A stretch of 32,699 nt of DNA from Ignavibacteriota bacterium. GTDB lineage: Bacteria > Bacteroidota > Ignavibacteria > UBA10030 > CAVZMI01. The DNA is taken from NCBI GenBank assembly GCA_963776275.1, contig CAVZMI010000030.1, forward strand, positions 1-32,699, given 5' to 3'. The stretch's first letter is position 1. Each line of letters starts with the position of its first letter. The notes beneath the pieces were generated by a model. The model was not told where the DNA came from, did not search any database, and saw only the letters and a program-made list of their open reading frames with translations. Position numbers and translations under genes: made by a program. Shown here in pieces: positions 1 to 22,617 of the stretch.

Positions 1-434
1 ATAAACAACATCGGGACGCAAAAAACGCGCTGACCCCGATAAATCCCACTGGAGTACGTGGGCCCGTAAAGAACACGGAAACATCGGGGCAAGCGGAATG
101 AGCCCGCCTACGTTACAAAGCAAACTTCCGCCTTCGTTTCACTGCGGCGGACGAGTCGGCGGACAAGCGTGGTACGTTAAGCATGGCTTGCAACGGTTTA
201 ATATATTTTGAAGGCTATCAGCGTGAACTTGTTTCGTTATCAACAATTTGAACGTTTGTAATGCCGCAGCTCCCGCTTCAGTCCGTCTCGACAGAGTCGA
301 GACGAGACCTCGACAAAGTCGGGCGGGATACTCGATTCGACCACAATTTGATTGGACAACATCAAATTTGTCGAATCGGGATTATTTATCCGCCGGAGTG
401 TTGTTTACGAAGGCGGAGCCGCCATCCGTTAGGC
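1..434 (+). repeat. attC site 0 (5' end outside window), expanded by nested palindromic inserts
   Basis: Ends GCCGCCATCCGTTAGGC (R' 428-434). Shares GCTGAC..GGAATGAGC, TACGTTAAGCATGGC and GCCGCAGCT motifs with the other long attC sites. Confidence 0.85.
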
Positions 435-463
435 ATCAAAAACAATCAAGGAAGGAGCAGGTC

Positions 464-1087
464 ATGAAACGATTATATGGTCTTTTTGTTTTATTAATCG
501 TTCTTGTCTCATGTACCCAAAACGCCCCTAAAGTACTTCTCTTCGTACGGGATGGATCTCCACATTTAGGGTACATGCTCAACAAAGAAGTCGGTACCAT
601 GAAAGAAATACTCGAACAATCCGGTTTCAAAGTTACGATTGCGACAATATCCGGAGAAGTTTTAAAAACGGATTCGATATCTGTAACGCCTCATATTAAG
701 TTAGGCAATGTAAATATTGCTGATTATGCGGGATTCATTTTACCATGCATGGCCAGCGATTCCACACATTCAGAAACAGTATCTTTTATCAAAGAAGTGG
801 TAAAACAAGGGAAACCCATAGCGGCTCAGCTCGGTTCAGTAGTGACTCTGGCCCGAGCAGGCGTTCTTCAGGGTAAGAAATTTGCCTTTCCTGAAGGGAA
901 AGACATAAATGCGAGTATGTATCCAGAGTTTAATGGTAGCATTTATAGTGGAAAAGGTGTTATTCAAGATGGGCTCATTATTACCTCTGGAATCTGTCCC
1001 TGGATGGCAAAAATGCCGGGTTATCAGGATGGTACTGATGAACTTACTCGAGCATTAATCAATACGATAAAGGCAACAGCTAAATAG
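464..1087 (+). CDS. DJ-1/PfpI (class I glutamine amidotransferase-like) family lipoprotein, cassette 1
   Basis: ATG 464 after AAGGAAGGAG RBS. Lipobox-like LVSC. DJ-1-like segments (ADYAGFILP, GKPIAAQ, LARAGVLQGKK, VIQDGLIITS). The ORF-track extension to 248 runs through the attC. Confidence 0.8.
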   Translation: MKRLYGLFVLLIVLVSCTQNAPKVLLFVRDGSPHLGYMLNKEVGTMKEILEQSGFKVTIATISGEVLKTDSISVTPHIKLGNVNIADYAGFILPCMASDSTHSETVSFIKEVVKQGKPIAAQLGSVVTLARAGVLQGKKFAFPEGKDINASMYPEFNGSIYSGKGVIQDGLIITSGICPWMAKMPGYQDGTDELTRALINTIKATAK

Positions 1088-1150
1088 AAATACCTAATGT
1101 TTAATTTAGTTGAAAAATATTTATTTACATCATTACTTATGTTTATTTAT

Positions 1151-1274
1151 GCCTAACACCCGCATCAAGGTGGACGCGACCCAACCTCGCGATTTTTTAA
1201 AGTTGACAATACGCAGCCAAGAAAGTAACAGAATTTAACTTTGTGGGTCGCGCCACTTATGCTTGTCGTTAGGC
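1151..1274 (+). repeat. attC site 1 (124 bp, canonical, no inserts)
   Basis: R'' GCCTAAC 1151-1157 and R' GTTAGGC 1268-1274. The arm GCATCAAGGTGGACGCGACCCA pairs with TGGGTCGCGCCACTTATGC, with extrahelical bases. Confidence 0.92.
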
Positions 1275-1318
1275 GGCAAAACATTAATATGACAGAAGCG
1301 TAAAAAGCATCTAACGTA

Positions 1319-1618
1319 ATGGAGAGATTTGAAATTGCAGTTCAATCTCTAGCGACCGGACCTGGTGACGTCCGTTCTCGTTTAGAAAATGCTTTTTTGT
1401 CTATCGTTGTATTCCAAGAGAATGATTTGCCTAAAGAAATTCAAAAGGATTTCTCTTGGGTTGTGAAAAGTCTAACAAAAAAAGAATCTCGATATCTTAA
1501 TGAAGGATCGCTTCATTCTACATTAGCGCAAATAAAGAATGTAACTGGCTCTAAGATCGCTAAAAGAATTTTTGCCATGTATAAAACAATAATAAGACTA
1601 AAATCACAAGACAAATAA
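1319..1618 (+). CDS. Hypothetical protein, cassette 2
   Basis: 99-aa ORF that fills the space between attC1 and attC2. An in-frame upstream ATG at 1289 is followed by TAA at 1301-1303. Confidence 0.7.
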   Translation: MERFEIAVQSLATGPGDVRSRLENAFLSIVVFQENDLPKEIQKDFSWVVKSLTKKESRYLNEGSLHSTLAQIKNVTGSKIAKRIFAMYKTIIRLKSQDK

Positions 1619-1628
1619 CGGTTTTGCT

Positions 1629-1923
1629 GCCTAACCAGCAACTCAAGCTGACCGAATAAGCCCGCCTGCCTGCCGGAGGCACGCAGGCAGGCCTACGTTA
1701 AAAGGTAAACTTCCGCCTTCGTTTCACTTCCGCCTCCGTTCCACTACGGCGGACAGGCCGGCGGACGAGTCGGAGGGCGATCGCAGTCCGGTAGATGGTC
1801 TTTGAAACCATTCAAGAAGGTTGTGTTATGCCAATCCAGATAACATACTTGAATGAATCGACTAATAAGCAGCAAGCAATTGGGATGTTATGCGGGCAAA
1901 AGTAATAACTCCGCATGTTATGC
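1629..1923 (+). repeat. attC site 2 (left arm intact, right arm atypical)
   Basis: GCCTAACCAGCAACTCAAGCTGACCGAATAAGC left arm, then nested inserts. The family right arm is missing; three GTTATGC candidates lie at 1825, 1887 and 1917, so the end is uncertain. Confidence 0.65.
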
Positions 1924-1955
1924 GGATCAATCTAATTATTGTTTGGAGTATCAAA

Positions 1956-3500
1956 ATGAAAATACTAATGGTTCTATTAACGCTCCTATTGAACACACAA
2001 ATGTACGTTGATTCATTAGCTCAAGAAATGCCCTTCGTCTATGGAGTTGAAAACACGGGCGCGGACTGTCCGAAACCGCCTTTGCCTACATTCAACCAGC
2101 TCCCGACCATCAAAGTCCTACCCGACCCGTTCGAGTGGGCCGATAGCAGCGGTCGCATCTTGAACCTCTCCGATTGGCGGTGCCGGCGTGCCGAGATCGG
2201 CGCTGAGATCCAGCAATACGAGCTTGGGACCAAGCCAGCTCCTCCGGACAGCTTGGAAGCCAGCTTCTCTGCTGATAGCGTACTCACAGTGACCATAGTA
2301 GTGGGTGGAGACACACTCACGCTGACTTCGAAGATCACACTCCCAGATGGGTACGGCCCCTTCCCGGCCGTGATCGGTGTGGGATTTTTTCCGACGGGTA
2401 GTCTCCCACCCGACATCTTTACCAGTCGCCAGATCGCGACCATCCAATACACGGAATCGCAAATAACGAACGCTTGGTCAAACGTACGCGGCGATGGACC
2501 CTTCTTCAAACTTTATCCGGATAAAACAAGGAGCAAATTTGTCGCCTGGGCCTGGGGCATCAGCCGCATCATCGATGGGTTGGAGAAGTGCCCTGAAGCC
2601 AACATCGATCTCTCGCATCTGGCCGTGACCGGCTGCTCCTATGCCGGTAAAATTGCGCTCTTTTCCGGTGCGTTTGACGAGCGCATCGCGCTTACTATTG
2701 CGCAGGAGTCTGGTGGCGGGGGGTACACGGCCTGGCGCGTCACGGAGACCCTGAGCGGGAGCAGGGAAACTCTGAGGAACGCCCAAGGTCAAGCCTGGTA
2801 TTACTCGGGCCTCTCTCAATTCAACAACGCAGTTACAAAACTACCTTACGATCATCATGAGGTGATGGCAATGGTGGCGCCCCGCGCGTTGTTCGTGACC
2901 GGTAACCCCGATTATGAATGGCTGGCAGATGAATCCGGACACGTCGCGAGTAAGGCTGCATATGAGGTCTGGAAAGCTCTTGGGGTACCAGACAGGTTCG
3001 GCTTTTCTATTGTCAGTGGACATAGCCACTGCCTACTCCCGGATAGCCAGAGACCAGAGGTGATAGCCTTTGTGGAAAAGTTCCTCCTTGGGGACACGAA
3101 CGCGAATACAGACATATCGACCAGTCCATACAATACCGACCTTTCCCCCTGGATTACGTGGGATACACCTGAATTGGTTAATGATATGCCATCTTCTATA
3201 GGTAATTCTGAAAAAGTGATTGACCGATTCGCTCTTAAGCAAAATTACCCTAATCCTTTTAATCCAACTACAACGATACGATATTCGATAAGTTCACCAG
3301 AAGAGGTTTCAATTAAAATATATGATGTTTCTGGTCAGCTCGTTAAAGAAATTAGCAAAAATCAGAATCAAGCCGGGGAATACGAAGTTGTTTGGAATGG
3401 CAAAAATAATTTTGGCGAAAGAGTTACCTCCGGCATTTATTTTTACCAACTTGTGGTTGGTAATCATTCTGAAGCGAAGAAAATGATATTACTAAAATAA
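1956..3500 (+). CDS. Secreted CE15 (glucuronoyl esterase family) esterase with C-terminal FlgD-Ig/T9SS-like sorting domain, cassette 3
   Basis: Signal peptide, LPDPF, AWAWGISRIID, catalytic GCSYAGK, AFDERIALTIAQESGGGG, LPYDHHE and C-terminal QNYPNPFNPTTTI...SGIYFY. Start 1956 follows GGAG. Confidence 0.9.
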   Translation: MKILMVLLTLLLNTQMYVDSLAQEMPFVYGVENTGADCPKPPLPTFNQLPTIKVLPDPFEWADSSGRILNLSDWRCRRAEIGAEIQQYELGTKPAPPDSLEASFSADSVLTVTIVVGGDTLTLTSKITLPDGYGPFPAVIGVGFFPTGSLPPDIFTSRQIATIQYTESQITNAWSNVRGDGPFFKLYPDKTRSKFVAWAWGISRIIDGLEKCPEANIDLSHLAVTGCSYAGKIALFSGAFDERIALTIAQESGGGGYTAWRVTETLSGSRETLRNAQGQAWYYSGLSQFNNAVTKLPYDHHEVMAMVAPRALFVTGNPDYEWLADESGHVASKAAYEVWKALGVPDRFGFSIVSGHSHCLLPDSQRPEVIAFVEKFLLGDTNANTDISTSPYNTDLSPWITWDTPELVNDMPSSIGNSEKVIDRFALKQNYPNPFNPTTTIRYSISSPEEVSIKIYDVSGQLVKEISKNQNQAGEYEVVWNGKNNFGERVTSGIYFYQLVVGNHSEAKKMILLK

Positions 3501-3501
3501 C

Positions 3502-3910
3502 GCCTAACCAGCGGCTCAAGCTGACGCAAGGAGTCCGCGTACGTTAAGCATGGCTTGCATAGGTGAAGTGCAAATTTGTAAGCCAGAGGCTTATGAGCCT
3601 TTGGCTCAAAAATGAAGTGAATGAACCCGTCTCGCCGATGGCGAGACGAGGCTCGACTTCGTCGGCTTATTTCGTGTAGTACATTTTGAAAGTTATCACC
3701 TGCCTGTCGACTTGTCCGCTGAAACGAAGTGTAAGCGGAAGTGCCTTCGGCACGCAGACCCGCCTTAGTCCGGAGGACGTCAGCGGAGCAGTACTTTAGT
3801 ACGGCGGGCAGGCAGGGTGCGGCAGCGCGTTGTTTGCGTCCCGCGCTTTCGTGCTTTTTACGCCCCACGCTCTTTGAGGGGTTGCGAGGCTTAGCCGCCA
3901 TCCGTTAGGG
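3502..3910 (+). repeat. attC site 3 (409 bp)
   Basis: R'' GCCTAAC 3502 directly after the stop codon. GCGGCT(C)AAGC pairs with GCTTAGCCGC. R' GTTAGGG 3904-3910. The interior holds several GC-rich hairpin inserts. Confidence 0.88.
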
Positions 3911-3953
3911 CGTATTTTTATGAGTCCAGAAAATATCGAAATAATGTAAACGA

Positions 3954-4358
3954 ATGTCTCTTCGTCAGAAAATATTCTATGCAATATGTAGCATACTCGG
4001 AATGCTACTAATTATGATTGCACATGTTGTGCGTCCTTTCCTATATGGAAAATCAAATGCGGTTGTTTTTATTTTTGGATTATTGCCAAATTTGGCGGCG
4101 GCATTTTCTATACCTTTTCCAATTATGTTTTTCTGTATTCAATCACTCCGCTTTAAAATACGTACAAAAATGTTTTCCTGGCTGTTTATTCTAATTGTAA
4201 TCATAAGCATGGGTGGATTATTCATCTGGGAAGTAGTGCAAAAATTAATTTGGGATATGCCTTTTGATAACAATGATATCTGGGCAACAGGAATTGGTGG
4301 TGTATTATCCATTCTTGTTTACATCCTATTATTGAGTCCTAAAAAAAATACTGCCTAA
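3954..4358 (+). CDS. Small integral membrane protein (about 4 TM), cassette 4
   Basis: 134 aa with four hydrophobic stretches and an FDNNDI motif. The stop codon lies within R'' of attC4. Confidence 0.8.
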   Translation: MSLRQKIFYAICSILGMLLIMIAHVVRPFLYGKSNAVVFIFGLLPNLAAAFSIPFPIMFFCIQSLRFKIRTKMFSWLFILIVIISMGGLFIWEVVQKLIWDMPFDNNDIWATGIGGVLSILVYILLLSPKKNTA

Positions 4359-4612
4359 CCAGCAGTTCAAGCTGACGGTTGAGAGTTGGTTACGAAATTC
4401 ATGGCGAGTAGAGGTTCGGTGTTTAATAAAAAGCTTTTCAGAATGAACTTGGTTCGTTTAGTACTATTTTGAAAGTTTTCAACGCCGCAGCTCCCGTTTT
4501 GCGGGATCCTCGATTCGACCACAATTTGATTGGACAACATCAAATTTGTCGAATCGGGATTATTTATCCGCCGTAGTGTTGTTTACGTAGGCGGAGCGCC
4601 CATCCGTTGGGG
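4353..4612 (+). repeat. attC site 4 (260 bp), L' box interrupted by about 100 bp of hairpins
   Basis: GCCTAACCAGCAGTTCAAGCTGACGG ... GCCGCAGCT[insert]AGCGCCCATCCGTTGGGG. Confidence 0.85.
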
Positions 4613-4666
4613 CGCAGCGCTTTTTGTAATAATAGAAGTTATATGACATTTTAAAAAAATCAAAGT

Positions 4667-6295
4667 ATGAGACAAAACTTTTTCTATATATTATTTTTTT
4701 TCTGCAATGTATTAGCACATTCCCAGACTAACGAAGTAGCAAAAATAGACATACTTTTTAAACACTGGAATACATTAATTACTCCAGGATGTGCTGTCGG
4801 TATAATCAAGGACAATAAAGTAGCATTTACAAAGTGCTATGGTATGGCAAATCTTGATAATAATATATCGATCAATAATAATACGAAGTTTATAACTGCA
4901 TCTCTTACAAAACAATTTACAGCTTATTGCATTGCTATTCTTATTTCTCAAGGGAAATTGAGCTTAGAAGATGATATAAGAACATATCTTCCAGAATTTC
5001 CTTATTCAAAAGACACTTTGAGAATTAAACACTTAATATATCATACAAATGGATTACATGATTATAGCGCCTTAATGAGCATATGTGGTGATTCATATGA
5101 TGATTTAAACTATGAGCATATGATAAAAGAGAAAGTTTATTCTATATCAGTATCAAAATTTAAGCCCGGTGAAAAGTTTGAATATAGCAATAGCGGTTAC
5201 TATTTGCTTTCTGAGATAATTGAACATGTCTCTCAATTACGAATTGATGAATTTGCTCGAAAATACATCTTTAGTCCGCTTGGGATGAATGATACATTTT
5301 TTTATACGAATCCAAGAGCAAAGAGCAATAATATGGCCGTTAGCTATACACAGAATATTTTCGGAGATTATCAAAAACAGTACTCAACTACCCCACCATT
5401 TGGGTCAGGGAATTTAATTTCTACTTTACATGATTTATTATTATGGGAGCAGAATTTTTATAACGGCAAATTATCTAAAAACAAACTCAACTATTTGATT
5501 TTAAAGCAAGGGGTTTTGAATAAAGGCGATACCATTGATTATTGTTTTGGTTTAAAAATTGGAAAACATAAAGAGCTGAAAATCATTTATCATTTTGGCG
5601 ATTATAACTCATTTGAATCAGTTATTATTAGGGTTCCCAAATATAAATTATCAGTAATAATACTTGCTAATGATAAAATAGCAAAAACATACTTTGACAA
5701 TTATTCTTTGGCCGACAAGATAATAGATATATTTCTAGACCAGAGTTCAAATCCTAAGATCCCTGAAAACAGATTTAAACCATTTAGTTCGGAAGAATCA
5801 ATTAAAAAATATATTGGAGTGTATAAATCAAAGAATGGAATTACATCAATAAGCTATGATGAAGGGCAATTGAAATTAAGTCATTCATGGGGAAATTGGT
5901 ACTATTCAATTTTCCCAACCTCAGATAGTGTCTTTTGTGATGAGTATGATTTTGAATATACTTACAAATTTAAAATAAATGATAATAAAGATGTAATGGG
6001 ACTGTGGACTCAACATACAGGTTATATAGAAAAGATAAATGCTGATAGTGTTTTAAAATTATCAAATGATTACAGCGGAGCCTATTATTCAAAGGAATTA
6101 AATACAGTTTATAAGTTATACCAAGAAAAAGGAAAAATATATTGTAAAATCAACAGCAAGGCTTCGAAAGAATTAATAATTACAGGAAGGGATACTTTTA
6201 GATTAGATAAGAACGTTATAAAGTTAATTCGTAATGATTCAAAAATTATTAATAGAATTGAAGTGAATAATGAATATGTGTTTAAAAAATTGTAA
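4667..6295 (+). CDS. Serine hydrolase, beta-lactamase/AmpC-like fold with C-terminal extension, cassette 5
   Basis: Signal peptide, PGCAVGII, SxxK (SLTK), YSN (FEYSNSGY) and HFG motifs. Very AT-rich. Confidence 0.88.
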   Translation: MRQNFFYILFFFCNVLAHSQTNEVAKIDILFKHWNTLITPGCAVGIIKDNKVAFTKCYGMANLDNNISINNNTKFITASLTKQFTAYCIAILISQGKLSLEDDIRTYLPEFPYSKDTLRIKHLIYHTNGLHDYSALMSICGDSYDDLNYEHMIKEKVYSISVSKFKPGEKFEYSNSGYYLLSEIIEHVSQLRIDEFARKYIFSPLGMNDTFFYTNPRAKSNNMAVSYTQNIFGDYQKQYSTTPPFGSGNLISTLHDLLLWEQNFYNGKLSKNKLNYLILKQGVLNKGDTIDYCFGLKIGKHKELKIIYHFGDYNSFESVIIRVPKYKLSVIILANDKIAKTYFDNYSLADKIIDIFLDQSSNPKIPENRFKPFSSEESIKKYIGVYKSKNGITSISYDEGQLKLSHSWGNWYYSIFPTSDSVFCDEYDFEYTYKFKINDNKDVMGLWTQHTGYIEKINADSVLKLSNDYSGAYYSKELNTVYKLYQEKGKIYCKINSKASKELIITGRDTFRLDKNVIKLIRNDSKIINRIEVNNEYVFKKL

Positions 6296-6312
6296 ATAAA
6301 AATATAGCTGCG

Positions 6313-6701
6313 CCCTAACCAGGCGCTCCCCGTTAGAAAGCGGCGGGATTCTCAATTCGACCACAACTTACCTGTAAAACGGTAAGTTTGTCGAATTGGA
6401 ACAAGCTGACCCCGACAAAGAGCATGTCGGGGCAGGCGGAATGAGCATGCATATGTTAAAGAGCAAACTCCGGCGGACAAACGTAGTACGTTAAGCATGG
6501 CGAGCATAGGTTTAGAACAAATATGAAAGTTATCAGTGCCGCAGCTCCCGCTTTGCGGGATCCCTGCCTGCGTGCTGTAGGAACTACGGCAGGTAGGCTC
6601 GATTCGACCACAATTTGATTTGAAAACATCAAATTTGTCGAATCGGGATTATTTATCCGCCGTAGTGTTGTTTACGAAGGCGGAGCGCCCATCCGTTAGG
6701 C
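6313..6701 (+). repeat. attC site 5 (389 bp), both L'' and L' interrupted
   Basis: CCCTAACCAGGCGCTC[insert]AAGCTGAC[insert]GGAATGAGC ... GCCGCAGCT[insert]AGCGCCCATCCGTTAGGC. Confidence 0.85.
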
Positions 6702-6847
6702 CGCTTGCGCTTTTAAGATAGAAATTTGCTTCGATGGAAAATACGAGATATATTGACGCCAAAGGGAGAGAAAATAGATACCCCGATTTACATTTCGCAT
6801 TGAATTTATTAATAGTAGTGCATGTTTAACACATAAATTAAAAACAA

Positions 6848-8441
6848 ATGAAAACTAATTATTTGTTACTAATCATTCTTGGAAGCCTGTTTGTGGCATC
6901 CACATTTGCACAAAGCAATTCCAATAACAAATCCATATTACAGGAACGGGTTATCAGCCTTGATTTTAATAAAATCAAAGGGAACTTCACTACAATGTTT
7001 AAAGAATGCATTGGTGCCGGCCGCGCTAATGAAGGATTACGGGCGGATTGGCAACAACAACTGGCCTTTGTAAAGAAGGAATGCGATTTCAAATATATCC
7101 GCATGCACGGACTGTTAACAGACGATATGGGCGTTTACAGGGAAGATAAAAATGGAAATCCGGAATATAATTTTCAGTACATCGATGTTTTATATGATTA
7201 CCTTCTGAGTATCGGGATGAAACCTTTTGTTGAATTAGGATTCATGCCGGATGCACTGGCTAGTGGCAATCAAACCATTTTCTGGTGGAAGGGAAACGTC
7301 ACGCCACCTAAGGATTATAAAAAGTGGGAAGACTTAATCCGCAATCTTACCCTTCATTTCACTGAACGCTATGGTGCAGATGAAGTAAAGACCTGGTATT
7401 TTGAGGTTTGGAACGAGCCTAACCTGAGTGGTTTCTGGGCGGGAACGCAAGAGGAATATTTCAAATTGTATATGTATACCGTGAAAGCCATAAAAAGTGT
7501 AAACAAAGAATATCCGGGTTGGCGGACCTGCTACTGCCGGTGCCGCTTGGGTGCCTGAAATGATCGACTTCTGCAGTAAAAATGCGCTCCCTCTGGATTT
7601 TATCAGTACCCATTCTTATGGAGTCAAACAAGGATATCTCGATGAATTTGGAGTTTCAGGTACAGTCCTTGACAAAAATCCTATGAGCGTCAGCGGTGAT
7701 ATTCTGAATTCGCGTAAACAAATTGCAAGTTCCTCTATGCCAAATTTGGAACTACATTATACCGAATGGAGTTCATCCTACACACCCTTTGATCCAATTC
7801 ACGACAGCTATCATCAGGCTGCCTATGTGCTGGAAAAAATTAAACAAGTCGGAAATGCAGCGAATTCAATGTCATATTGGGTATTCACAGATATTTTTGA
7901 AGAAGCGGGACCGCGCTTTACACCTTTTCACGGCGGATTCGGATTGCTGAATTACCAGGCCATCAACAAACCAGCCTTCTATTCCTTCAAGTTCATGAAT
8001 ATACTCGGAAACATAGAGTTGATTAATACTGATACATGTTCTTGGGCATGCAAAAATGCAAAGGGCAACATTCAGTTACTTTTCTGGGATTTCACCAACA
8101 CACATCCCGGAGATTCTGTGAATAATCAAGTGTATTATATTCGCGATTTGCCAGCTAAATCAAAAGGGAAAGTAAAGATAAGTATATCAGGGATCCCGGA
8201 AGGTACCTATGCGCTTGAAATATATAAAGTAGGTTATCATATAAACGATCCATATTCTACTTATCTTGCGATGAACAAGCCAAAGCAACTTACTAAACAA
8301 CAGGTTGAGCAAATAAAGAAATTGAATGACGGTTCTCCTGTTTCTAATGAAATAGTAAAAGTGAAAACTGATGCAGCATTTTTAAAAGAACTGGATCTTC
8401 GTGAAAATGATGTTTTCTTATTGAATATGATTAAACAATAA
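6848..8441 (+). CDS. GH39 beta-xylosidase-like glycosidase, split by a +1 frameshift near 7514-7518, cassette 6
   Basis: Signal peptide, YIRMHG, KPFVELGFMP, WNEP (acid/base) in the first ORF and YTEW (nucleophile) in the second. Removing one base restores EYRVGGPATAGAAWVPEM and gives about 530 aa. Confidence 0.9.
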
Positions 8442-8574
8442 TGCAATTAAAAACCAACCACTATTTTTGAATAAGGCATAGATTTTTTTAAAATGAGTTT
8501 GAGATTAATAAACGGCACTTAACAACAGCTCATACGCCATGCGGGACGAGGATTTCAGGTAACTTTATCTAGCG

Positions 8575-8821
8575 GCCTAACCAGTCGCTCCCCGTTAGAA
8601 AGCAACGGGATTCTCAATTCGACCACAACTTACCTGTAAAACGGTAAGTTTGTCGAATTGGAACAAGCCCGCCTCGCCCCGCGATAATAGCCTTGTCATG
8701 CAAGGCGGGACGGGCTGACGGAATGAGCGCCCGCCTTCGTTGAAAAGCAAACTACGGCGGACAGGTCGGCGGGCAAGCGCCGGAGCGTTATTTACGAAGG
8801 CGGAGCCGCCATCCGTTAGAA
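8575..8821 (+). repeat. attC site 6 (247 bp), with inserts and most of the central family core lost
   Basis: GCCTAACCAGTCGCTC[same insert as attC5]AAGC... and GAGCCGCCATCCGTTAGAA end. Confidence 0.85.
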
Positions 8822-8916
8822 CGCAAAAATAACATTGCGTTGTTACACGGGTTTGCGGATATTTTCAAACCTTACACATAAATACAATATTAGCATCATC
8901 TTTTAAAGGCTTCAAA

Positions 8917-11331
8917 ATGGAAAACACAAAACTATTATCAGTTATTATTCTCATTTCAATTTGTACTTCATTATTATTGGGGCAAACATTTCAAAAAGAA
9001 TCGGATGGTATAGAGTTTAATGCATCGAATAACACAAATGGAATTAAAAAACTTAAGTTAAAGGTATTGAGCGACAACATTATTCAAGTAATTGTAACAC
9101 CTTCGAGTAAGTTTTCCATGCGCGGAAGCCTGATAATTACTGAAAAGTTGTTGACATCGCCAGTTTGGAAGGTTGAAGAGAACGGTAAAAACATAGTATT
9201 GTCAACTGCATCGGTTTCAGTTCGTATTGATAAACTTACTTCGAACCTTGAGTTTATTAAAAAAGATGGACAAATGATTCTGGCTGAAAGTGATAGGATA
9301 GTTAATAAGGCTAAGGTTGTTGGTGAAAATTGTTTCAATATCAAGCAATCATTTCAATATACGTTAGGCGAAACATTATATGGTTTAGGAAGTTTCCAGG
9401 ATGCCGATATTGCTTTAAATGGTAAAAAAATAACATTATTGCAAAAAAACCGCGACGATGTTGTACCGGTTATTATTTCTACCAATCATTACGGATTGAT
9501 TTGGGATAATTATTCCTATAGCGAGTTTAACGACACAAGGTGTAACTATTACCTGTGGTCAGAAGTAGCCGATGAAATCAATTACTTTTTCATTTATGGT
9601 GAGAATATCGATACAATAATTTCTGGATACCGCAAATTAACAGGTGTTGCGCCCATGTATCCCAAATGGGTCTATGGTTATATACAATCGAAGCAAAAAT
9701 ACAATACTCAGGATGAAATAGTTTCCATAGTAAAAGGGTTTCGCGAAAGGAAGTTCCCGCTTGATGTAATTGTTCAGGATTGGCAATACTGGCCTGATAA
9801 TCAGTGGGGACAAAAATCGTTTAACCGGAAGAATTATCCGAACCCCACTAAAATGGTAAATGATATTCACGATATGAATGCAAAGGTAATTATATCAATT
9901 TGGCCCAACATGACCAAAGGAACACCCAACCAGGTTGAGCTTGCCAAAATTAACGGGTTGCTGAAAGACAAGGAACATTTGAATATACTTATGCCCGAAG
10001 CAAGGCAAATGTATTGGAAGCAGGCTGACGATAGTCTTTTTTCTACTGGTATCGATGGCTGGTGGGCCGATTGCTCGGAAGGATATGACTCCGATTGGAC
10101 TTCTCCATTTTTTAAAATGTCCAATGTAAAATCGAATGAAGTAAATTCCGGTAATTTAAAATGGCTGATGAACAGTGGGCGTTATATCAATATTTATGCG
10201 CTGATGCACACCAAAGGCTTGTACGAAGGGCAACGATCAACACCCTCTCATAAAAGGGTTTACATTCTCACGCGTTCATCTTTTGCGGGAATGCAAAAAT
10301 ACGGGGCAAGTTATTGGACTGGCGATGTATCGGCCAATTGGGAGGAATATCGTATGCAAATACCCGCAGGTTTAAATTTTTGCATGACAGGGATTCCTTA
10401 TTGGACAACCGATATAGCCGGATATTTTATCAAACACGAACCGGGTTGGTGGTTTTCAAATGGTGTATTTGAAAAAGGTCAGGAAGACGAGGGATTTAAA
10501 GAACTTTATACGCGTTGGTTTCAGTTTGCAGCATTCTGTCCATTGTTCCGTGCGCACGGAGCTGATTTTTCCCGAGAACCCTGGGCTTTTGGAACTCCCG
10601 AATCGCGGACTTATCGTACATTGCTCAAATTTACCAACCTGCGTTACAGGTTAATGCCATACATCTATTCAATGGCATGGAAGATAACCAACGAGAATTA
10701 CACCCTCATGCGCGCTTTACCATTCGATTTCATGAATGATTCTGCAACCTATAATATCAATAACCAGTACATGTTTGGTCCTTCAATTATGGTAAATCCG
10801 GTAGTTAAACCAATGTACTACCATACCAACAATGTTAAAATAGATTCATCGGATTACAAAAGTGAAGTGTATTTGCCCAAAGGCGCACAATGGTTCGATT
10901 TCTGGACAGGCAAGCAATATGATGGTGGCCAAAATATTAAAGCAGATGCATCTTTCGAAACCATGCCCTTGTTCGTTCGGGCAGGTTCAATTATCCCATT
11001 CGGGCCTTTTATTCAATATTCAACAGAAAAAACCGATCCTCTCGAAATCAGGATTTATACAGGTTCCGATGGTGAATTTAGCCTGTATGAAGATGAAAAC
11101 GATAATTACAGTTATGAAAAAGGTGTTTATTCATTAATCTCATTCAAATGGGACAATGCCCAAAAAATATTAACAATTAGTGATAGAAAAGGTGATTTTC
11201 CCAGTATGCAAAAAAATAGGACATTTAATGTCGTAATTGTGAGTGATAGTAAAGGAAAGGGTGTTGAAACTACAGAAATACCTACAACAACTATTCAGTA
11301 CGTTGGTAAAAAGATGGTTGAAATATTTTAA
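8917..11331 (+). CDS. GH31 glycoside hydrolase (alpha-xylosidase-like), cassette 7
   Basis: Signal peptide, PLDVIVQDWQYW, GWWADCSE nucleophile region, WTGDV, PYWTTDIAG, RWFQFAAFCPLFRAHG and a C-terminal LYEDENDNYSYEKG domain. Confidence 0.93.
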   Translation: MENTKLLSVIILISICTSLLLGQTFQKESDGIEFNASNNTNGIKKLKLKVLSDNIIQVIVTPSSKFSMRGSLIITEKLLTSPVWKVEENGKNIVLSTASVSVRIDKLTSNLEFIKKDGQMILAESDRIVNKAKVVGENCFNIKQSFQYTLGETLYGLGSFQDADIALNGKKITLLQKNRDDVVPVIISTNHYGLIWDNYSYSEFNDTRCNYYLWSEVADEINYFFIYGENIDTIISGYRKLTGVAPMYPKWVYGYIQSKQKYNTQDEIVSIVKGFRERKFPLDVIVQDWQYWPDNQWGQKSFNRKNYPNPTKMVNDIHDMNAKVIISIWPNMTKGTPNQVELAKINGLLKDKEHLNILMPEARQMYWKQADDSLFSTGIDGWWADCSEGYDSDWTSPFFKMSNVKSNEVNSGNLKWLMNSGRYINIYALMHTKGLYEGQRSTPSHKRVYILTRSSFAGMQKYGASYWTGDVSANWEEYRMQIPAGLNFCMTGIPYWTTDIAGYFIKHEPGWWFSNGVFEKGQEDEGFKELYTRWFQFAAFCPLFRAHGADFSREPWAFGTPESRTYRTLLKFTNLRYRLMPYIYSMAWKITNENYTLMRALPFDFMNDSATYNINNQYMFGPSIMVNPVVKPMYYHTNNVKIDSSDYKSEVYLPKGAQWFDFWTGKQYDGGQNIKADASFETMPLFVRAGSIIPFGPFIQYSTEKTDPLEIRIYTGSDGEFSLYEDENDNYSYEKGVYSLISFKWDNAQKILTISDRKGDFPSMQKNRTFNVVIVSDSKGKGVETTEIPTTTIQYVGKKMVEIF

Positions 11332-11486
11332 GCTGATAAGTTATGAAGAATAGAATAAAATGTCCGCTAACATCGGCCCATACTGAATGCAGGGTTCGGC
11401 GGTTTGTAACAGCGGAAACATTTGCAACCGCGAAAACTCTCGCTGCTATAGCAGAGAACTGTTAAATAACATTTTCACCGTTTGCG

Positions 11487-11821
11487 TTCTAACCAGCGGC
11501 TCAAGCTGACCCGACTACGTCTTGAGAAACAGACTTCCGCCTCCATCCGCCGCCGGTGGATTCCGGCGGACAGGCTCGCCTCGCTCCGCTCGGCGGAGCG
11601 GGTCGTCGAGGCCAGGCCGAACGAGCGCCCGCCTTCGTGCTTTGCACTTCGGCGAGTAAATGGGTACATTTTTCATGGCTAATAGTGGGTTATCGTACAT
11701 TAATTAGGTTTATAGTATATTCAATTTAAGTGGTAATCAATTTAGTGTTGAGAATAAACTTGTTTCGCTTGGTGCAAGTTGCGAGTAATAGTTGCCGCAG
11801 CTTAACCGCCATCCGTTATGC
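11487..11821 (+). repeat. attC site 7 (335 bp)
   Basis: TTCTAACCAGCGGCTCAAGCTGAC[insert 11511-11617]CGAACGAGC ... GCCGCAGCTTAACCGCCATCCGTTATGC. The L boxes are intact. Confidence 0.88.
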
Positions 11822-11888
11822 AATAACTTTAGATTATAGATAATTAATGATTATTTTTTTTCGAACATCTAAATGAAGGGAGGATTTA

Positions 11889-13449
11889 ATGAATCAATCC
11901 ATTACTAAAGTCGAACGTACGAAGGTTCTTCCGGTCAACCGTTATCACAAATCAGATTCCGTTCCCTTTTCGGTTTTTGACATTAATAAGGCTCCTCTGA
12001 AGGATCTTGTATCAAAATTCAAAATAAGCACTGGCGCCGCAAAGGCGGTTATATCTGCAAGGAGAAGAAATAAAATCAACGTCTCAACTGAAATCTTGAA
12101 TCTCAAAGAATTGCGGCATCGTGATTTGGAGATTTTGCGGAGATGTGGTTATGGCAAAAATAACTTGAAATTTGCTATAGCCGATGTGCAGCCCGATAGC
12201 AATTATATTTATAGTTATAGACCTTTTGCGCTTAAAATTTCTGTCTTGAATCCATCCTTAAGAAGACTATTGTTGGTATCGGCGAAAGTTTTTTGGAAAG
12301 GAAAGCCCTTTATTGTAGAAAAAGAAATTTCTCAAGCCGAAATAGAGCAGGGCAGCATATTGCTGAACTTCAATGAGAAGCAGACATTACCCCCTAGACC
12401 GGCGGCATTTCATGTCGATATATTTGATAGTGAAGGTGGGCAGAGTTCATTTAAAGTAACTTGTGTCGTCTTACCTTCCAATCCATTGTCGCTCTACCTT
12501 GCGCCGGAGATATATAAGGTGACCGGTACGTACAGTCTTAGAGGATACTATGATTCAGGGACAAATAATTTTGTCACCGTGGTGAAAATTTCAATTTTTA
12601 ACGGGAATCCTTTCAGCGTTGCCATATCACGCTACATTAAATGGGAATATTGGGACGGTGGTGTCGGTGGTTCACTCATTGAATCCAATACCCACGATCT
12701 CGGTGGTAATTTTACCATCGGTGCAAATAATACGTGGAGCATTGATCTCTATTTTACTTCACCTCCCGGAAGCGGTATCTATAATACGTATCAAAATAAA
12801 GAAGATATGACGGTAAAAATTGAGATGAACAGTACTGACGGGACCATTATTAACGATACGATTACTGCAAGGGTGATGCTTGCCTTTGGTGTCGACATCA
12901 CTAGGGTCGCAAGCGATACATTCGTCGGACAAGAATATACCGATCTCTATGATGCCGTTGATGTAACAAAAACAATTTATGAAGCCCGAGATATCACTAT
13001 CAGAGATATTGGCAGGTATTATATTACGGACAGTGATGCAGGTAGTTACAAATATATTAATTCTGATTCTGAATGTCACAATTTGTTTAATGATTGGACG
13101 TGCTACGACCCAACTGGTTTCAATATCGATGTTTTTATCGCACACGATTTTGTTGGTGTGAGCTTCGATGGACTTGCTGGTAGCATCCCCTGGACCGATG
13201 AGTGACTCGGGAAGTAATAGCGGAGTCGTGGCTGATAAAACCGGGTACGTCGATGGTTCAGGAACAAAAAGGCTCTCGGTTGATTATCTAGGAATGCTAG
13301 TCGGACATGAAGTTGGACATTACCTTGGTCTCGTTCATATCTCGGAAGCCGGGAATCTGATGCTTGCGAGCAGCGGAACAAATGATACGAACTTAAATTA
13401 CGATCAATATAGAACCATTATGGGTTATGGTCGTGTATTTATCTTTTAA
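11889..13449 (+). CDS. Multidomain protein: N-terminal ComEA-like helix-hairpin-helix, beta-rich middle, C-terminal metzincin Zn-protease; +1 frameshift at CCCC 13187-13190; cassette 8 gene 1
   Basis: FDINKAPLKDL...ISTGAAKAVISARRR follows the HhH pattern. HEVGHYLGLVH (13306-13338) plus a GNLM Met-turn. Removing one C joins the two ORFs as AGSIPGPMS (about 519 aa). GAAGGGAGG RBS. Confidence 0.75.
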
Positions 13450-14761: not shown

Positions 14762-15310
14762 GCCTAATCAGCGCATCCCCGAAAAAAGAATTTGGGGCAG
14801 GCAAGACCCGATAGATCCTACTGGACCCCACAATCCCACATATCCCACAAACAACGTGGGACCGTAAAGAACACGAAACGTGGGACGTGAAGAACACGGG
14901 AGAAGGGGATGTAATTTGCATGTCGAGTGTCGATCATCAAAAGTCATGGAGTCCCGTAGGGACGGAATCTTGGTAGAAAACGCAAAACAAAATCCATTGA
15001 GCTCCGTCAGGGGCGGAATCTTGAAATATGTACCATGCATAAAAAGATTCCACCCCTACGGGGTTATGATATTTATGTGAAAGCGAATACTACCAAGATT
15101 TCACCTCTATGAGTCGTAGACCCCATCGGGGTTTGGTAATTTCGAAGGTGTACGATATGTGATCTCTACGAACCCTTCTTATAGAACATGGAACCATATC
15201 GGGGCAGGCCGAATGAGCCCGCCAAAAGATTCCGCCAGTCCCGTACAGAGCACGGGACGTAAAGAACACGAAAACGGCGGACGCACGAAACGCGAAAGCA
15301 TGGTGGGCAA
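14762..15310 (+). repeat. Degenerate terminal attC site 9 filled with nested repeats
   Basis: Mutated R'' GCCTAAT. GATTGGCTGCCTAAT complements GTTAGGTAGCCAATC at 14184 (13/15). Family motifs CGAATGAGCCCGCC and AAGCATGG are present; no right arm or R' was found. Confidence 0.65.
14951..15113. repeat. GTAG-type REP cluster (two forward, two inverted units; REPIN-like)
   Basis: GTCCCGTAGGGACGGAATCTTGGTAG (14951), GCTCCGTCAGGGGCGGAATCTT (15001), inverted AAGATTCCACCCCTACGGGGT (15044) and inverted CTACCAAGATTTCACCTCTATGAG (15090). Confidence 0.75.
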
Positions 15311-15388: not shown

Positions 15389-15426
15389 TAATAACGCTTG
15401 ACATTAATAACGGGAAGTGTTATTAT
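15389..15426 (+). promoter_or_regulatory. Sigma70 promoter of higBA with overlapping palindromic operator
   Basis: TTGACA 15398-15403, 17-bp spacer, TATTAT 15421-15426. Inverted repeat TAATAAC-N7-GTTATTA at 15405-15425 and a further TAATAAC at 15389. Confidence 0.8.
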
Positions 15427-15431
15427 ACCAT

Positions 15432-15713
15432 ATGATAAAGACCTTTAAGAATAAAGAAACAGAAAAAATATATGACCGTGAGTACTCGAAGAAGTTGCCA
15501 AGCGATATTCAGAGAATCGCAATGAGAAAACTATGGATGCTTGATGCAGCCCCTGATATTTATTCTCTTCGAGTTCCTCCTGGTAATAGGCTGGAATCGT
15601 TACACGGAGCTCGCGAGGGGCAATATAGTATCAGAATAAACGATCAATGGAGAATATGTTTTCGATGGCATGATGGCAATGCCTATGACGTTGAGATAAT
15701 CGATTATCATTAA
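15432..15713 (+). CDS. higB: HigB toxin (RelE/ParE family)
   Basis: MIKTFKNKETE..., LRVPPGNRLESLHG.REGQYSIRINDQWRICFRW...VEIIDYH. The toxin precedes the antitoxin. Confidence 0.95.
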   Translation: MIKTFKNKETEKIYDREYSKKLPSDIQRIAMRKLWMLDAAPDIYSLRVPPGNRLESLHGAREGQYSIRINDQWRICFRWHDGNAYDVEIIDYH

Positions 15714-15724
15714 GGAGAGAAAAA

Positions 15725-16027
15725 ATGTCCACAAAAAAAATACAGCCGATCCATCCAGGAGAAATTCTTAAGGAAGAGTTCTTGGATCCGATGGGAATTT
15801 CTCAATATCGCCTTGCGAAAGATATCAATGTACCAGCAAGAAGGATCAACGAAATCGTCCATGGAAAACGCTCGATCTCCGCTGATACCGCATTGAGATT
15901 ATCGCGGTATTTCAAGGTGTCTCCCATCTTCTGGATTAATTTACAGGCGCATTATGATATCGAGATTGCGCGAGACAAATTATCATCAAGACTCGACAGG
16001 GAGATTAAGGTATATGCTGCCGCGTAA
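15725..16027 (+). CDS. higA: HigA antitoxin (HTH-XRE)
   Basis: PIHPGEILKEEFL, RINEIVHGKRSISADTALRL and FWINLQ motifs. Confidence 0.95.
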   Translation: MSTKKIQPIHPGEILKEEFLDPMGISQYRLAKDINVPARRINEIVHGKRSISADTALRLSRYFKVSPIFWINLQAHYDIEIARDKLSSRLDREIKVYAAA

Positions 16028-17950: not shown

Positions 17951-18190
17951 GCATACTTCCTGATTTTGTCGGAAGTGCTCATATGTGCTGAATCCCCCCC
18001 GATATCCAGTCCCTGCCTGCCCGCCGACGTCCTCCGGACTAAGGCGGGCCTGCGTGCCGGAGGCACTCCGGCCGGCAGGCGCTATAACGGCCCGTCCACC
18101 GGGCCTAAAAGGAGAGGCGGAAGTCGGAATCGGGATTAAGCAATAGAGTCCTGACAGAGCGTGACGGAAGTAGAAGGCGGCAACTAAAAA
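17951..18190 (+). promoter_or_regulatory. Structured rpsB leader (probable S2 autoregulatory RNA) carrying an inserted repeat
   Basis: Long-range pairs TACTTCC 17954 / GGAAGTA 18166 and TGCTGAATCCC 17986 / GGGATTAAGCA 18132, located upstream of rpsB. Confidence 0.55.
18011..18080 (-). repeat. Palindromic mini-element of the same family as in attC3
   Basis: 18026-18066 is the reverse complement of 3741-3781 (39/41). CCCTGCCTGCCCGCCG also matches the reverse complement of about 3802-3817. Confidence 0.9.
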
Positions 18191-19003: not shown

Positions 19004-19603
19004 ATGGCAGGAATTTCAACAGAACTTGTGAAAGCAATCCGTGAACGAACCGGCGCCGGAATGATGGCCTGTAAGCAAGCCCTCGAGGAAACCAACGGCG
19101 ATATGGAAAAAGCCATCGAGGTCTTGCGAAAGAAGGGGGCAGCGCTGGCGGCGAAACGTGCATATAGAGCGACAAATCAGGGCGTTATTGAAGCATATAT
19201 TCATGCCGGAGGGCGAATCGGCACACTTGTCGAATTAAATTGCGAAACGGATTTTGTAGCAAAGACTCCGGAATTTCGCACGCTGGCTCACGATCTTGCG
19301 ATGCAGGTGGCTGCGATGAGCCCGATCGTTGTCTCACGCGAACAGCTTGAACCTGCACTCGTCGAACATGAGAAAGAAATTTATAGGACTCAGGCGCAAA
19401 ATGAAGGAAAACCCGCCCAGGTGATTGAGAAAATTGCCGAAGGGAGGATGGAAAAATTCTGTCAGGAAAATTGTTTATTGGAGCAGAGTTTCATTAAGGA
19501 TTCCAGCAAAACAATTAAGGATCTTTTAAACGAAGCTGCCGGAAAGATGGGAGAGAATATCAGTATCCGACGGTTCCATCGATTCCATCTCGGAGAGGTA
19601 TAA
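19004..19603 (+). CDS. tsf: Elongation factor Ts (short form)
   Basis: RERTGAGMMACKQAL and ELNCETDFVA motifs; 199 aa. Confidence 0.97.
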   Translation: MAGISTELVKAIRERTGAGMMACKQALEETNGDMEKAIEVLRKKGAALAAKRAYRATNQGVIEAYIHAGGRIGTLVELNCETDFVAKTPEFRTLAHDLAMQVAAMSPIVVSREQLEPALVEHEKEIYRTQAQNEGKPAQVIEKIAEGRMEKFCQENCLLEQSFIKDSSKTIKDLLNEAAGKMGENISIRRFHRFHLGEV

Positions 19604-22046: not shown

Positions 22047-22292
22047 GTGTTGTTCTCCCGACGATTATCAAGCAACTGTGGATATTGACCTATCGTCCCA
22101 TGAAGGACGAACGAAAGGTGGGGATTGTTACTGCAGCCCACCGAGATTCTATAATCTCAGTAGCAAGGGGTAAAGTGCGGATTTTCCTTTATTTTTATGA
22201 GGTTTTAATAACTCCTTGAATAACATACGAAATTCTATTGTAGATGTCAAGAGAAAAAATGGAAAGAGAGAAAAGAATAAGATCAAGGTCAA

Positions 22293-22360
22293 CCCTTCGA
22301 CTCCCCCTCGACTCGCACTTCCCAAAAAACGGGAAGTACTCGCTCGGGGTCGCTCAGGGC
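22293..22360. repeat. Nested REP-like palindrome
   Basis: CCCTTCGACT[CCCCCTCGACTCGCACTTCCC-AAAAAAC-GGGAAGTACTCGCTCGGGGT]CGCTCAGGGC. Confidence 0.7.
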
Positions 22361-22617
22361 GAGGGTCAAGATTAAGAAATGTCATATTTATGTCTATGAC
22401 GATGGAAACCTTAAAAAACGCAAAAAGCCCTGCGTCTTCACTGTTCGAATGAACTGAATAGTGCTCCTTATGTCCAGACCGAAGAAGAAATGTTGAAGGA
22501 AGAAAAACGGTTTGCTGAAATTTCAGAAAAAATGGCAGCTATACTTGATTATCTTGATAAAATATAGCTATCTCTTTCTTCCAGAAATATTTTCGGAGAA
22601 GGAAACCATTTGTCATT

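Follow-up and report, generated by a model that had tools for sequence, protein, structure and literature searches.

What becomes of an integron cassette array when its attC sites, at which the integrase IntI recombines cassettes, are themselves invaded by other DNA? The question is raised by a contig of an Ignavibacteriota bacterium (GenBank assembly GCA_963776275.1, contig CAVZMI010000030.1, positions 1 to 32,699, forward strand), whose full 32,699 nt are called the window from here on. Its bases 1 to ∼16000 hold co-oriented genes with attC sites between them, and small hairpins interrupt many of these sites, mainly in the L'' and L' boxes to which IntI binds. The answer we favor, at a probability of about 55%, is that non-autonomous hairpins have inserted into attC recurrently, as a parasitic decay of arrays without an integrase, with the locking of cassettes as a by-product.

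Hairpins in one family of attC sites

Most sites belong to one long attC family, with L'' GCTCAAGC, L' GCTTAGC, and a 6-bp stem between two extrahelical bases. Its right spacer (L' to R') is 8 nt long and pairs in part with the left spacer; the usual length is five to six nt, according to the available text of PMC5027507. By their folds, the sites are those of an integron cassette array or CALIN (cluster of attC sites without an integron-integrase), with a right spacer longer than usual. The sites and inserts are listed here, A and B being two insert types described below.

1..434, + strand: attC0, cut off on its left by the window's edge; L'' holds an insert (to 28), others follow GCTGA (34-93) and ATGAG, and L' holds A plus B
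272..382, + strand: element A with a nested hairpin, 111 nt, in L' of attC0
385..417, + strand: element B, a hairpin with a TTTA tail, within the L' box of attC0
1151..1274, + strand: attC1, uninvaded, of another attC type with a 6-nt right spacer (from fold and alignment)
1629..1800, + strand: attC2, left arm only; L'' clean, nested hairpins behind L'', no right arm
3502..3910, + strand: attC3; 7-bp L box still pairs (0.67); 118-nt and 64-nt right-arm inserts
3825..3888, + strand: 64-nt compound insert of attC3 at GCA^GCTTAG, just beyond the 7-bp L' and within the 6-bp stem between the extrahelical bases
4353..4612, + strand: attC4; L' split by A (4493-4560) and B (4563-4595), L'' and R' altered by point changes
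6313..6701, + strand: attC5; A-left at 6328-6401, followed by a tailed hairpin (6410-6436), by A-right (6547-6649, which contains a nested hairpin) and by B (6652-6684)
8575..8821, + strand: attC6; A-left (8590-8663), second insert in the L stem (8669-8715), central deletion
11487..11821, + strand: attC7; clean L boxes, hairpin inserts behind L''
14762..14900, + strand: degenerate left arm, filled at the same L'' junction by a hairpin of 25 nt with a CAGG tail (14777-14801)
18012..18080, + strand: compound tailed hairpin in the rpsB leader, the clear copy outside the array, with one unit in common with an attC3 insert

A first-pass annotation of the window had described a near-identical block of ∼75 bp in L'' of attC5 and attC6, and another of about 100-145 bp in the right arms of attC0, attC4 and attC5. 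Both do lie inside the L boxes, as it had proposed. The L'' block has 74 nt, and the two regions are 96% identical over 97 nt. L' is split by 146 nt in attC0, 103 nt in attC4 and 138 nt in attC5, and the insert blocks are 91-96% identical to one another over ∼100 nt. What had been taken for one right-arm block consists of a pair of distinct elements. The first, A, has two hairpins and measures 68-111 nt; the second, B, is a tailed hairpin of 33 nt; and the TA native to the site still stands between the two. A single right-arm element of 100-145 nt was rejected, since relatives carry A alone and B alone.

The invasion also reaches further than the four sites first named (attC0, 4, 5 and 6). The L boxes of attC7 are clean, as had been stated. 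The other site described as intact, attC3, carries its 64-nt insert just beyond L' and the 118-nt insert further in; as a whole, the 64-nt compound is a weak hairpin (z about 0). Also missed were the L'' insert of attC0 (recognized by its match to a site in the metagenome-assembled genome, MAG, SPRUCE 29), the second insert of attC6, the half-site at 14762, and the deletion in L' of attC6. That deletion joins a left hairpin to a compound B remnant and has taken the inner half of L'; the center of the site was lost at a repeated hairpin end common with a compound B.

Where do the hairpins land? For A-left, the junction is GCT^CAAG or GCTC^AAGC, with a 1-nt ambiguity, and it is read as GCT^CAAG because other insert families at the same site point there. 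It is placed immediately 5' of the top-strand base that partners the first extrahelical base. In the window and its relatives this junction is filled in 25/41 left arms (24 found by regular expression, one by reading), by at least five hairpin families. CAAG stands 3' of 19/25 of these L'' inserts (21 by regular expression, two of them internal matches), one site being repeated. At the other junctions only the pyrimidine is common. B's junction in L' is the symmetric partner of the L'' junction on the other strand; L'' has CAAG there, and L' has TAAG on its bottom strand. Hairpins also occur at fixed positions outside the L boxes (after GCTGA, ATGAG and TTATCA) and nested in one another, so the L boxes are the main targets and not the sole ones. 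Between L' and R', none of the 35 right arms checked is interrupted, a count that leaves out three degenerate arms of the 38-arm set, and the GTT of R' is intact in 32/35.

The 5' flanks of the inserts vary and the 3' flank is constant. Filled and empty sites compared with each other show no target duplication, with 1 nt possible for A. Reading the tails as a 4-nt duplication was rejected: at most junctions they do not follow the flank. The same junction recurs outside any L box in an IS110 relic, where a filled T^CAAG has an empty twin. This was the one YAAG motif seen filled among 420 in DNA that is neither attC nor open reading frame (ORF), so sequence alone does not explain the targeting.

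Most inserts other than A consist of a 4-nt tail (CCTG, CTTG, TTTA or CATG) and a GC-rich hairpin. A pattern derived from the attC copies themselves has 36 matches in 11.6 kb of attC DNA and 10 in 141.5 kb of other DNA; shuffled attC gives a mean of 0.69. In DNA outside attC sites and ORFs there are 2 in 29.7 kb, a small sample near arrays. The tails of the 36 are CTTG (11), CCTG (11), TTTA (10), CATG (2) and other (2). The pattern can return only such tails; reading of the relatives' sites found no GTAG or CGTC foot. A looser pattern has a purine 5' of the tail in 46/47 matches, which are not independent because junctions repeat. As for the strand on which the tailed hairpins fold, the bias of G-T pairs is uninformative.

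Element A has no tetranucleotide tail, a feature of the B-type elements. Against shuffles, A folds at z -5.2 to -7.0 and B at z -3.1. The long hairpin of A has 22 pairs, of which 7 show changes on both sides; 95.7% of cells are paired and three bulges are conserved, figures inflated by the relatedness of the copies. The few one-sided stem changes all preserve pairing on the top strand. The evidence for A is its long shared blocks. Taken by itself with two mismatches allowed, its 12-mer core does not exceed chance (5 matches against 3.7 expected); outside the searched bases the copies are 86% identical. A-left and A-right are two subfamilies, with 92% identity within and 70% between. All inserts are non-coding and reach at most ∼240 nt, nesting included. 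Rfam has no match in the window at gathering scores and none in 1-9000 at E up to 1, and blastn matched neither attC4 to plasmids nor attC5 to phages. Promoter and terminator scans of 1-12000 are at chance level (34 against 33; 14 against 11), which leaves a terminator role without support.

Is this a peculiarity of one contig? A scan of GTDB for the A core returned 12 loci, of which ten are true (three overlapping), from six Ignavibacteriota/Bacteroidota MAGs; L002 and L003 were dropped as chance matches, having no inner stem and a low covariance-model score. Judged by these relatives, the window's host is probably Ignavibacteria-like. All 10 distinct true matches sit in L'. With 4 copies found by reading and 5 in the window, A amounts to 19 copies, 14 in L' and 5 in L'', so that 19/19 lie in L boxes. 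A covariance model built from these finds no further copy in 192,507 bases. Since the loci were chosen for carrying A, invasion frequencies are biased upward. An assembly artefact was rejected on the same junctions in six independent MAGs and on the compensatory changes. Hairpin invasion is lineage-wide, in one attC family, by several miniature hairpins at fixed bases.

The relatives' arrays hold other mobile DNA as well. In the same attC family, the R''/spacer junction holds IS110-family elements and truncated ends, which run antisense to the array, and one 1.44-kb element occurs twice at 97% in one MAG. A group II intron with a reverse transcriptase (RT), on the top strand, stands at the stop codon of cassette genes with a type IX secretion system (T9SS) tail, twice in one MAG.

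L012 10595-11990; L001 6272-7714 and 2467-4149; minus-strand copies in L011; relics in L001 and L004: IS110-family copies
L004 13440-15440; minus-strand end in L011: group II intron with RT, its layout not bottom-strand as in IIC-attC introns

Predicted effect on recombination

Can an invaded site still recombine? The quantity used here is pfold, the probability of the recombinogenic fold in which the R and L boxes are paired, as defined in PMC5371416, computed with DNA parameters. On the attC5 backbone it is 0.68 without inserts and 0.70 once left A is put in; right A alone brings it to 4.7e-4 and B alone to 3.8e-7, and the site as it occurs has 1.9e-10. Right-arm inserts are thus predicted to lower the probability of the recombinogenic fold 10^3- to 10^9-fold, the left insert being neutral. 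The first-pass annotation had offered two readings, that invaded sites are dead or that self-folding inserts are tolerated as side arms. Each fits one arm: the former the right-arm inserts (4.7e-4 to 1.9e-10), the latter, in thermodynamic terms, the left insert alone (0.70).

For natural sites (n=15), some values are lifted because pairs that cannot form were dropped from the constraints. Four sites with clean L boxes give 0.004-0.67, and the one with only a left insert 0.009. A site with two left inserts and a damaged R'' gives 9e-7. A single right insert goes with 1e-5 to 4e-4 (five sites), and the presence of both with 1e-3, 2e-9, 2e-9 and 2e-10 (four sites). In attC3 the 7-bp L box is kept, and the full 6-bp stem is not (8e-7). 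attC4, which has point mutations as well, folds poorly even without its inserts (1.3e-5).

The pfold of 1e-4 to 1e-10 reached with right-arm inserts does not exceed the values at which, in the available text of PMC5371416, excision is low or undetected. Right-arm inserts break the 7-bp L stem and would therefore most likely stop recombination by IntI; on the folding model a loss of recombination at these sites is likely, and cassette locking is predicted. Extrahelical bases enter this question too: as far as the accessible texts go, attC x attC excision requires them and relies on them more heavily than attI x attC recombination (PMC2727003), and some attC sites recombine with attI without them (PMC5027507). 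With regard to locking itself, the cassette junction behind the invaded attC0 is common to SPRUCE 29 and that behind the clean attC1 has changed, one case each. No integrase is found among the ORFs of the window or the 97 ORFs of the true related loci, which include IS110 transposases and a group II intron RT, so that nothing shows clean sites to be still in use. The window's array runs off base 1, its 5' end not being visible; in relatives, array starts are visible at several loci, again with no adjacent integrase.

Origin and spread of the inserts

Did the hairpins arrive many times, or did each arrive once and then travel with copied attC arms? Sorted by regular expression, right arms (29 classed of 38) hold A and B in 8 cases, A only in 6 (one of which, by reading, has both), B only in 7 and neither in 8. 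Of the B tails, TTTA, CCTG and CTTG are all found both beside A and where A is absent. Fifteen flank haplotypes were found in 26/28 arms; 8 recur, and 4 of these 8 occur both with and without A. Backbones bearing A resemble one another no more than other backbones do (61% against 59%, p 0.17), and the A-bearing ones are rejected as a clade by the approximately unbiased test (p-AU 1e-4), as are the B-bearing ones (2.5e-6), in an analysis of 23 of 25 rows, two partial rows being left out. In SPRUCE 29, two sites have the same nested B; one carries A, and in the other L' is restored exactly. The A/B assortment, the mixed haplotypes and the non-clade backbones favor repeated insertion or precise loss, and recurrent targeted insertion over one insertion followed by copying.

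Copying or arm swapping happens as well, as shown by nested compounds that recur on unrelated cassettes. The CE15 gene has different attC bodies in the window and in SPRUCE 29. Similarity of the two (window 3502-3525, L006 ∼12470-12560) stops at L'', and the SPRUCE 29 copy has two tandem L'' boxes, which suggests recombination at L''. The earlier argument that identical inserts imply copying holds for the shared nested compounds; the A/B assortment and the several families per junction fit repeated insertion better.

How might such insertion work? Several small non-autonomous hairpin families (20-110 nt, longer when nested) would insert, without target duplication, into the single-stranded or folded attC of one long family in Ignavibacteria-like genomes. 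If the hairpin is read first, it would land 5' of a pyrimidine, and the two most-hit junctions would be the symmetric halves of the L box. Recombination between attC repeats may then reassort invaded arms, and repeated hairpins may seed deletions. With a left-arm insert the stem would stay paired, its branch placed beside the extrahelical G; with right-arm inserts locking would follow, as a by-product of the decay of arrays that lack an integrase.

The mover would likeliest be an HUH enzyme (TnpA-REP or IS91-like; REP, repetitive extragenic palindrome) acting in trans. It is proposed on account of the absent duplication, the fixed polarity, the tetranucleotide beside the hairpin, the conserved bulges and the structured targets, features which HUH single-strand systems use, as far as the accessible texts go (PMC6006769; bioRxiv 10.1101/2025.01.24.634351). 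By analogy, the inserts are most likely REP- or IS91-like non-autonomous single-stranded DNA (ssDNA) hairpins that parasitize decaying, integrase-less arrays. A bolder version makes them a new class of very small ssDNA parasites that home to L boxes through YAAG and the folded attC and can be excised precisely, acting as reversible off-switches of single cassettes. The SPRUCE 29 pair with and without A is what precise excision would give; the proposal is nonetheless a doubtful one.

Several points weigh against recurrent insertion by such an enzyme and the decay that would follow. The backbone tree is weak (2/20 branches well supported), recombination inside attC can break monophyly without new insertions, and the A subfamilies (92% against 70%) fit single origins with copying. 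The pfold of the four clean sites is itself modest (0.004-0.67), and damage to R'' in invaded arms (7/22, against 1/18 uninvaded, p 0.054) is a trend only. The tail adjoins the target tetranucleotide and not the far end as in IS91, and it is neither GTAG nor CGTC. No HUH enzyme is encoded among the window ORFs or the 97 related-locus ORFs, whole genomes being outside that scope.

What else could account for the inserts? Each may have arisen once, the invaded arms then being copied to new cassettes or spread by gene conversion or recombination. Identical nested compounds on unrelated cassettes speak for this, as do the two A subfamilies, each tied to its own arm, and the CE15 gene with its two attC bodies alike only up to L''. 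On the other hand, four A/B states with shared tails require crossovers within a 2-nt interval, several unrelated families share one junction amid mixed flank haplotypes, and the same junction is used in the IS110 relic; single origins are unlikely, if worth keeping in mind. It is less probable still that the inserts are tolerated side arms and the sites continue to recombine, through an adapted host integrase or a substitute stem formed by insert ends. The neutral left insert (0.70 against 0.68) agrees with that, as does attC5, whose R box remains paired (0.87) and in which A-left and B pair with each other by their ends. R' is uninterrupted (35/35) with GTT mostly intact (32/35), and loss of extrahelical bases is not always fatal in the attI x attC assays described in the available part of PMC5027507. 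Right-arm pfold of 1e-4 to 1e-10 is nevertheless at or below values with low or no excision in the available text of PMC5371416, and deletion has removed an arm from attC6 and from several related sites.

IS110-family transposases in the relatives' own arrays, at the R''/spacer junction, together with IS1111 members known to target attC (PMC11187229, available text), might make the inserts miniature derivatives or footprints of such RNA-guided elements. These copies lie at a different position with unrelated ends, the A model finds nothing in them, and a dozen junctions would need equally many guides, which makes the idea very improbable. Slightly weaker yet is the case for locking selected by the host to retain useful cassettes such as hydrolases. 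Invaded sites do flank intact carbohydrate-active and hydrolase genes, and L boxes are hit where R boxes are not; small unknown ORFs and stubs are flanked likewise, hairpins are nested in one another, inside an IS relic and within the rpsB leader, places with nothing to lock, and no integrase adjoins any array start seen.

Do the hairpins belong to a known group? [quoted passage not shown] Palindrome-associated transposable elements (PATEs) are IS200/IS605 derivatives, and the fixed tetranucleotide 5' of the left end that marks such derivatives is not seen, 5' flanks being variable and 3' flanks constant. The IS1111-attC group (ISKpn4, ISPst6, ISPa21) likewise places mobile DNA at a set attC position, as full-length elements with a DEDD transposase and guide RNA near one attC end (PMC11187229, PMC3001079, both in their available parts). 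The inserts are, in contrast, non-coding hairpins of 20-110 nt in the L boxes with no DEDD transposase inside, and the relatives' IS110 genes are separate elements. Group IIC-attC introns also target attC as structured DNA (PMC3001079, same part), but the inserts have no RT or intron RNA (no Rfam match for them, no RT in the window), and position and size differ.

REP sequences and their REP-associated tyrosine transposases (TnpA-REP, RAYT) come closer: a tetranucleotide stands at the foot of a short hairpin, and some REP families lie inside other palindromes (PMC6006769; PMC3733652, as far as available). B-type inserts have such a foot; their tails are CCTG, CTTG, TTTA or CATG and not GTAG, GTGG or CGTC. 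Their copies are concentrated in attC, and the small near-array sample does not show the many extragenic genome copies typical of REP. No gene for RAYT or a Y1 HUH enzyme is present in the ORFs of the window and related loci. IS91, an HUH family with rolling-circle transposition, makes no target duplication either; its targets are CTTG, GTTC or CTCG, and a palindrome lies beside a tetranucleotide at terIS (bioRxiv 10.1101/2025.01.24.634351, accessible text). The L'' junction is CTTG on the bottom strand, but the inserts' own tetranucleotide adjoins the target and many other junctions are used; as single or double hairpins without an ORF, they have no distinct oriIS and terIS and no transposase. 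From REP, IS91, IS200/IS605 derivatives, MITEs, IS1111-attC elements and group IIC introns alike, the inserts depart in one or more of the features that define the group. The literature covered (few subscription papers, no supplementary repeat tables) contained no report of small hairpins in attC L boxes. Attack on attC by IS1111 elements and introns is already known; the miniature L-box hairpin form appears new, in that no report of it was found.

As for the arrays themselves, CALINs are co-oriented cassettes with attC and no nearby intI, proposed to be degraded integrons, and integrons are reported in Ignavibacteriae, as the accessible text of bioRxiv 10.1101/2022.02.28.482270 has it. The difference here is decay by position-specific hairpin invasion, CALIN status being shown for relatives only. 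Such invasion probably cripples many attC sites and may help to freeze and erode cassette arrays, which would be a concrete way for arrays to cease shuffling and turn into CALINs while their genes are retained. It also provides attC variants, found in nature, that branch at the extrahelical base; the cited assays, in their available descriptions, do not include this geometry. Nested inserts act as lineage tags on attC arms, which makes the copying of attC onto new genes testable by sequence comparison. Invaded sites would probably be missed by attC finders, and arrays in this lineage may be undercounted.

Genes and other repeats of the window

The array genes encode DJ-1/PfpI, CE15 with a T9SS-type tail, a PF00144 serine hydrolase, GH39, GH31, HEAT, DinB and higBA. 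Four of them lie among the invaded sites.

464..1087, + strand: DJ-1/PfpI cassette gene, 93% to the SPRUCE 29 MAG copy
1956..3500, + strand: CE15 glucuronoyl-esterase-like cassette gene with T9SS-type tail, 94% to the SPRUCE 29 copy, attC different
4667..6295, + strand: serine hydrolase (PF00144) cassette gene, below every NCBIfam beta-lactamase cut-off
6848..8441, + strand: GH39 cassette gene, in two frames at ∼7510

What comes first 3' of GH39 is a truncated left arm of another attC type (8517 on), so that attC6 cannot simply be taken for the site of the GH39 cassette. Remnants of this second type and very short cassette stubs lie between genes and long-family sites at 8517-8574, 11366-11486 and 1820-1930.

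Single-base frameshifts occur at short homopolymers at 7510 (GH39), 13190 (the 11889 ORF) and 20200 (pyrH). They are probably long-read errors, and single-base details need caution; they were not taken as evidence of decay, because pyrH too is frameshifted at a homopolymer.

The higBA toxin-antitoxin pair (15417-16027) is the array end and adjoins lipA-rplM-rpsI. Further 3' come other housekeeping genes (rpsB, tsf, pyrH, frr, suf), of which EF-Ts (19004-19603) is a short form of 199 aa. Other repeats occur as well: before higBA, within what is left of the last attC, inverted repeats that contain GTAGG form a cluster of a further REP-like type (14930-15190), and between an extracytoplasmic function (ECF) sigma gene and ackA lies a nested palindromic repeat (22285-22370), of a family different from the attC inserts. 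GC skew is positive along 1-21000; if this marks the leading strand, the attC top strand would be the one exposed at the fork.

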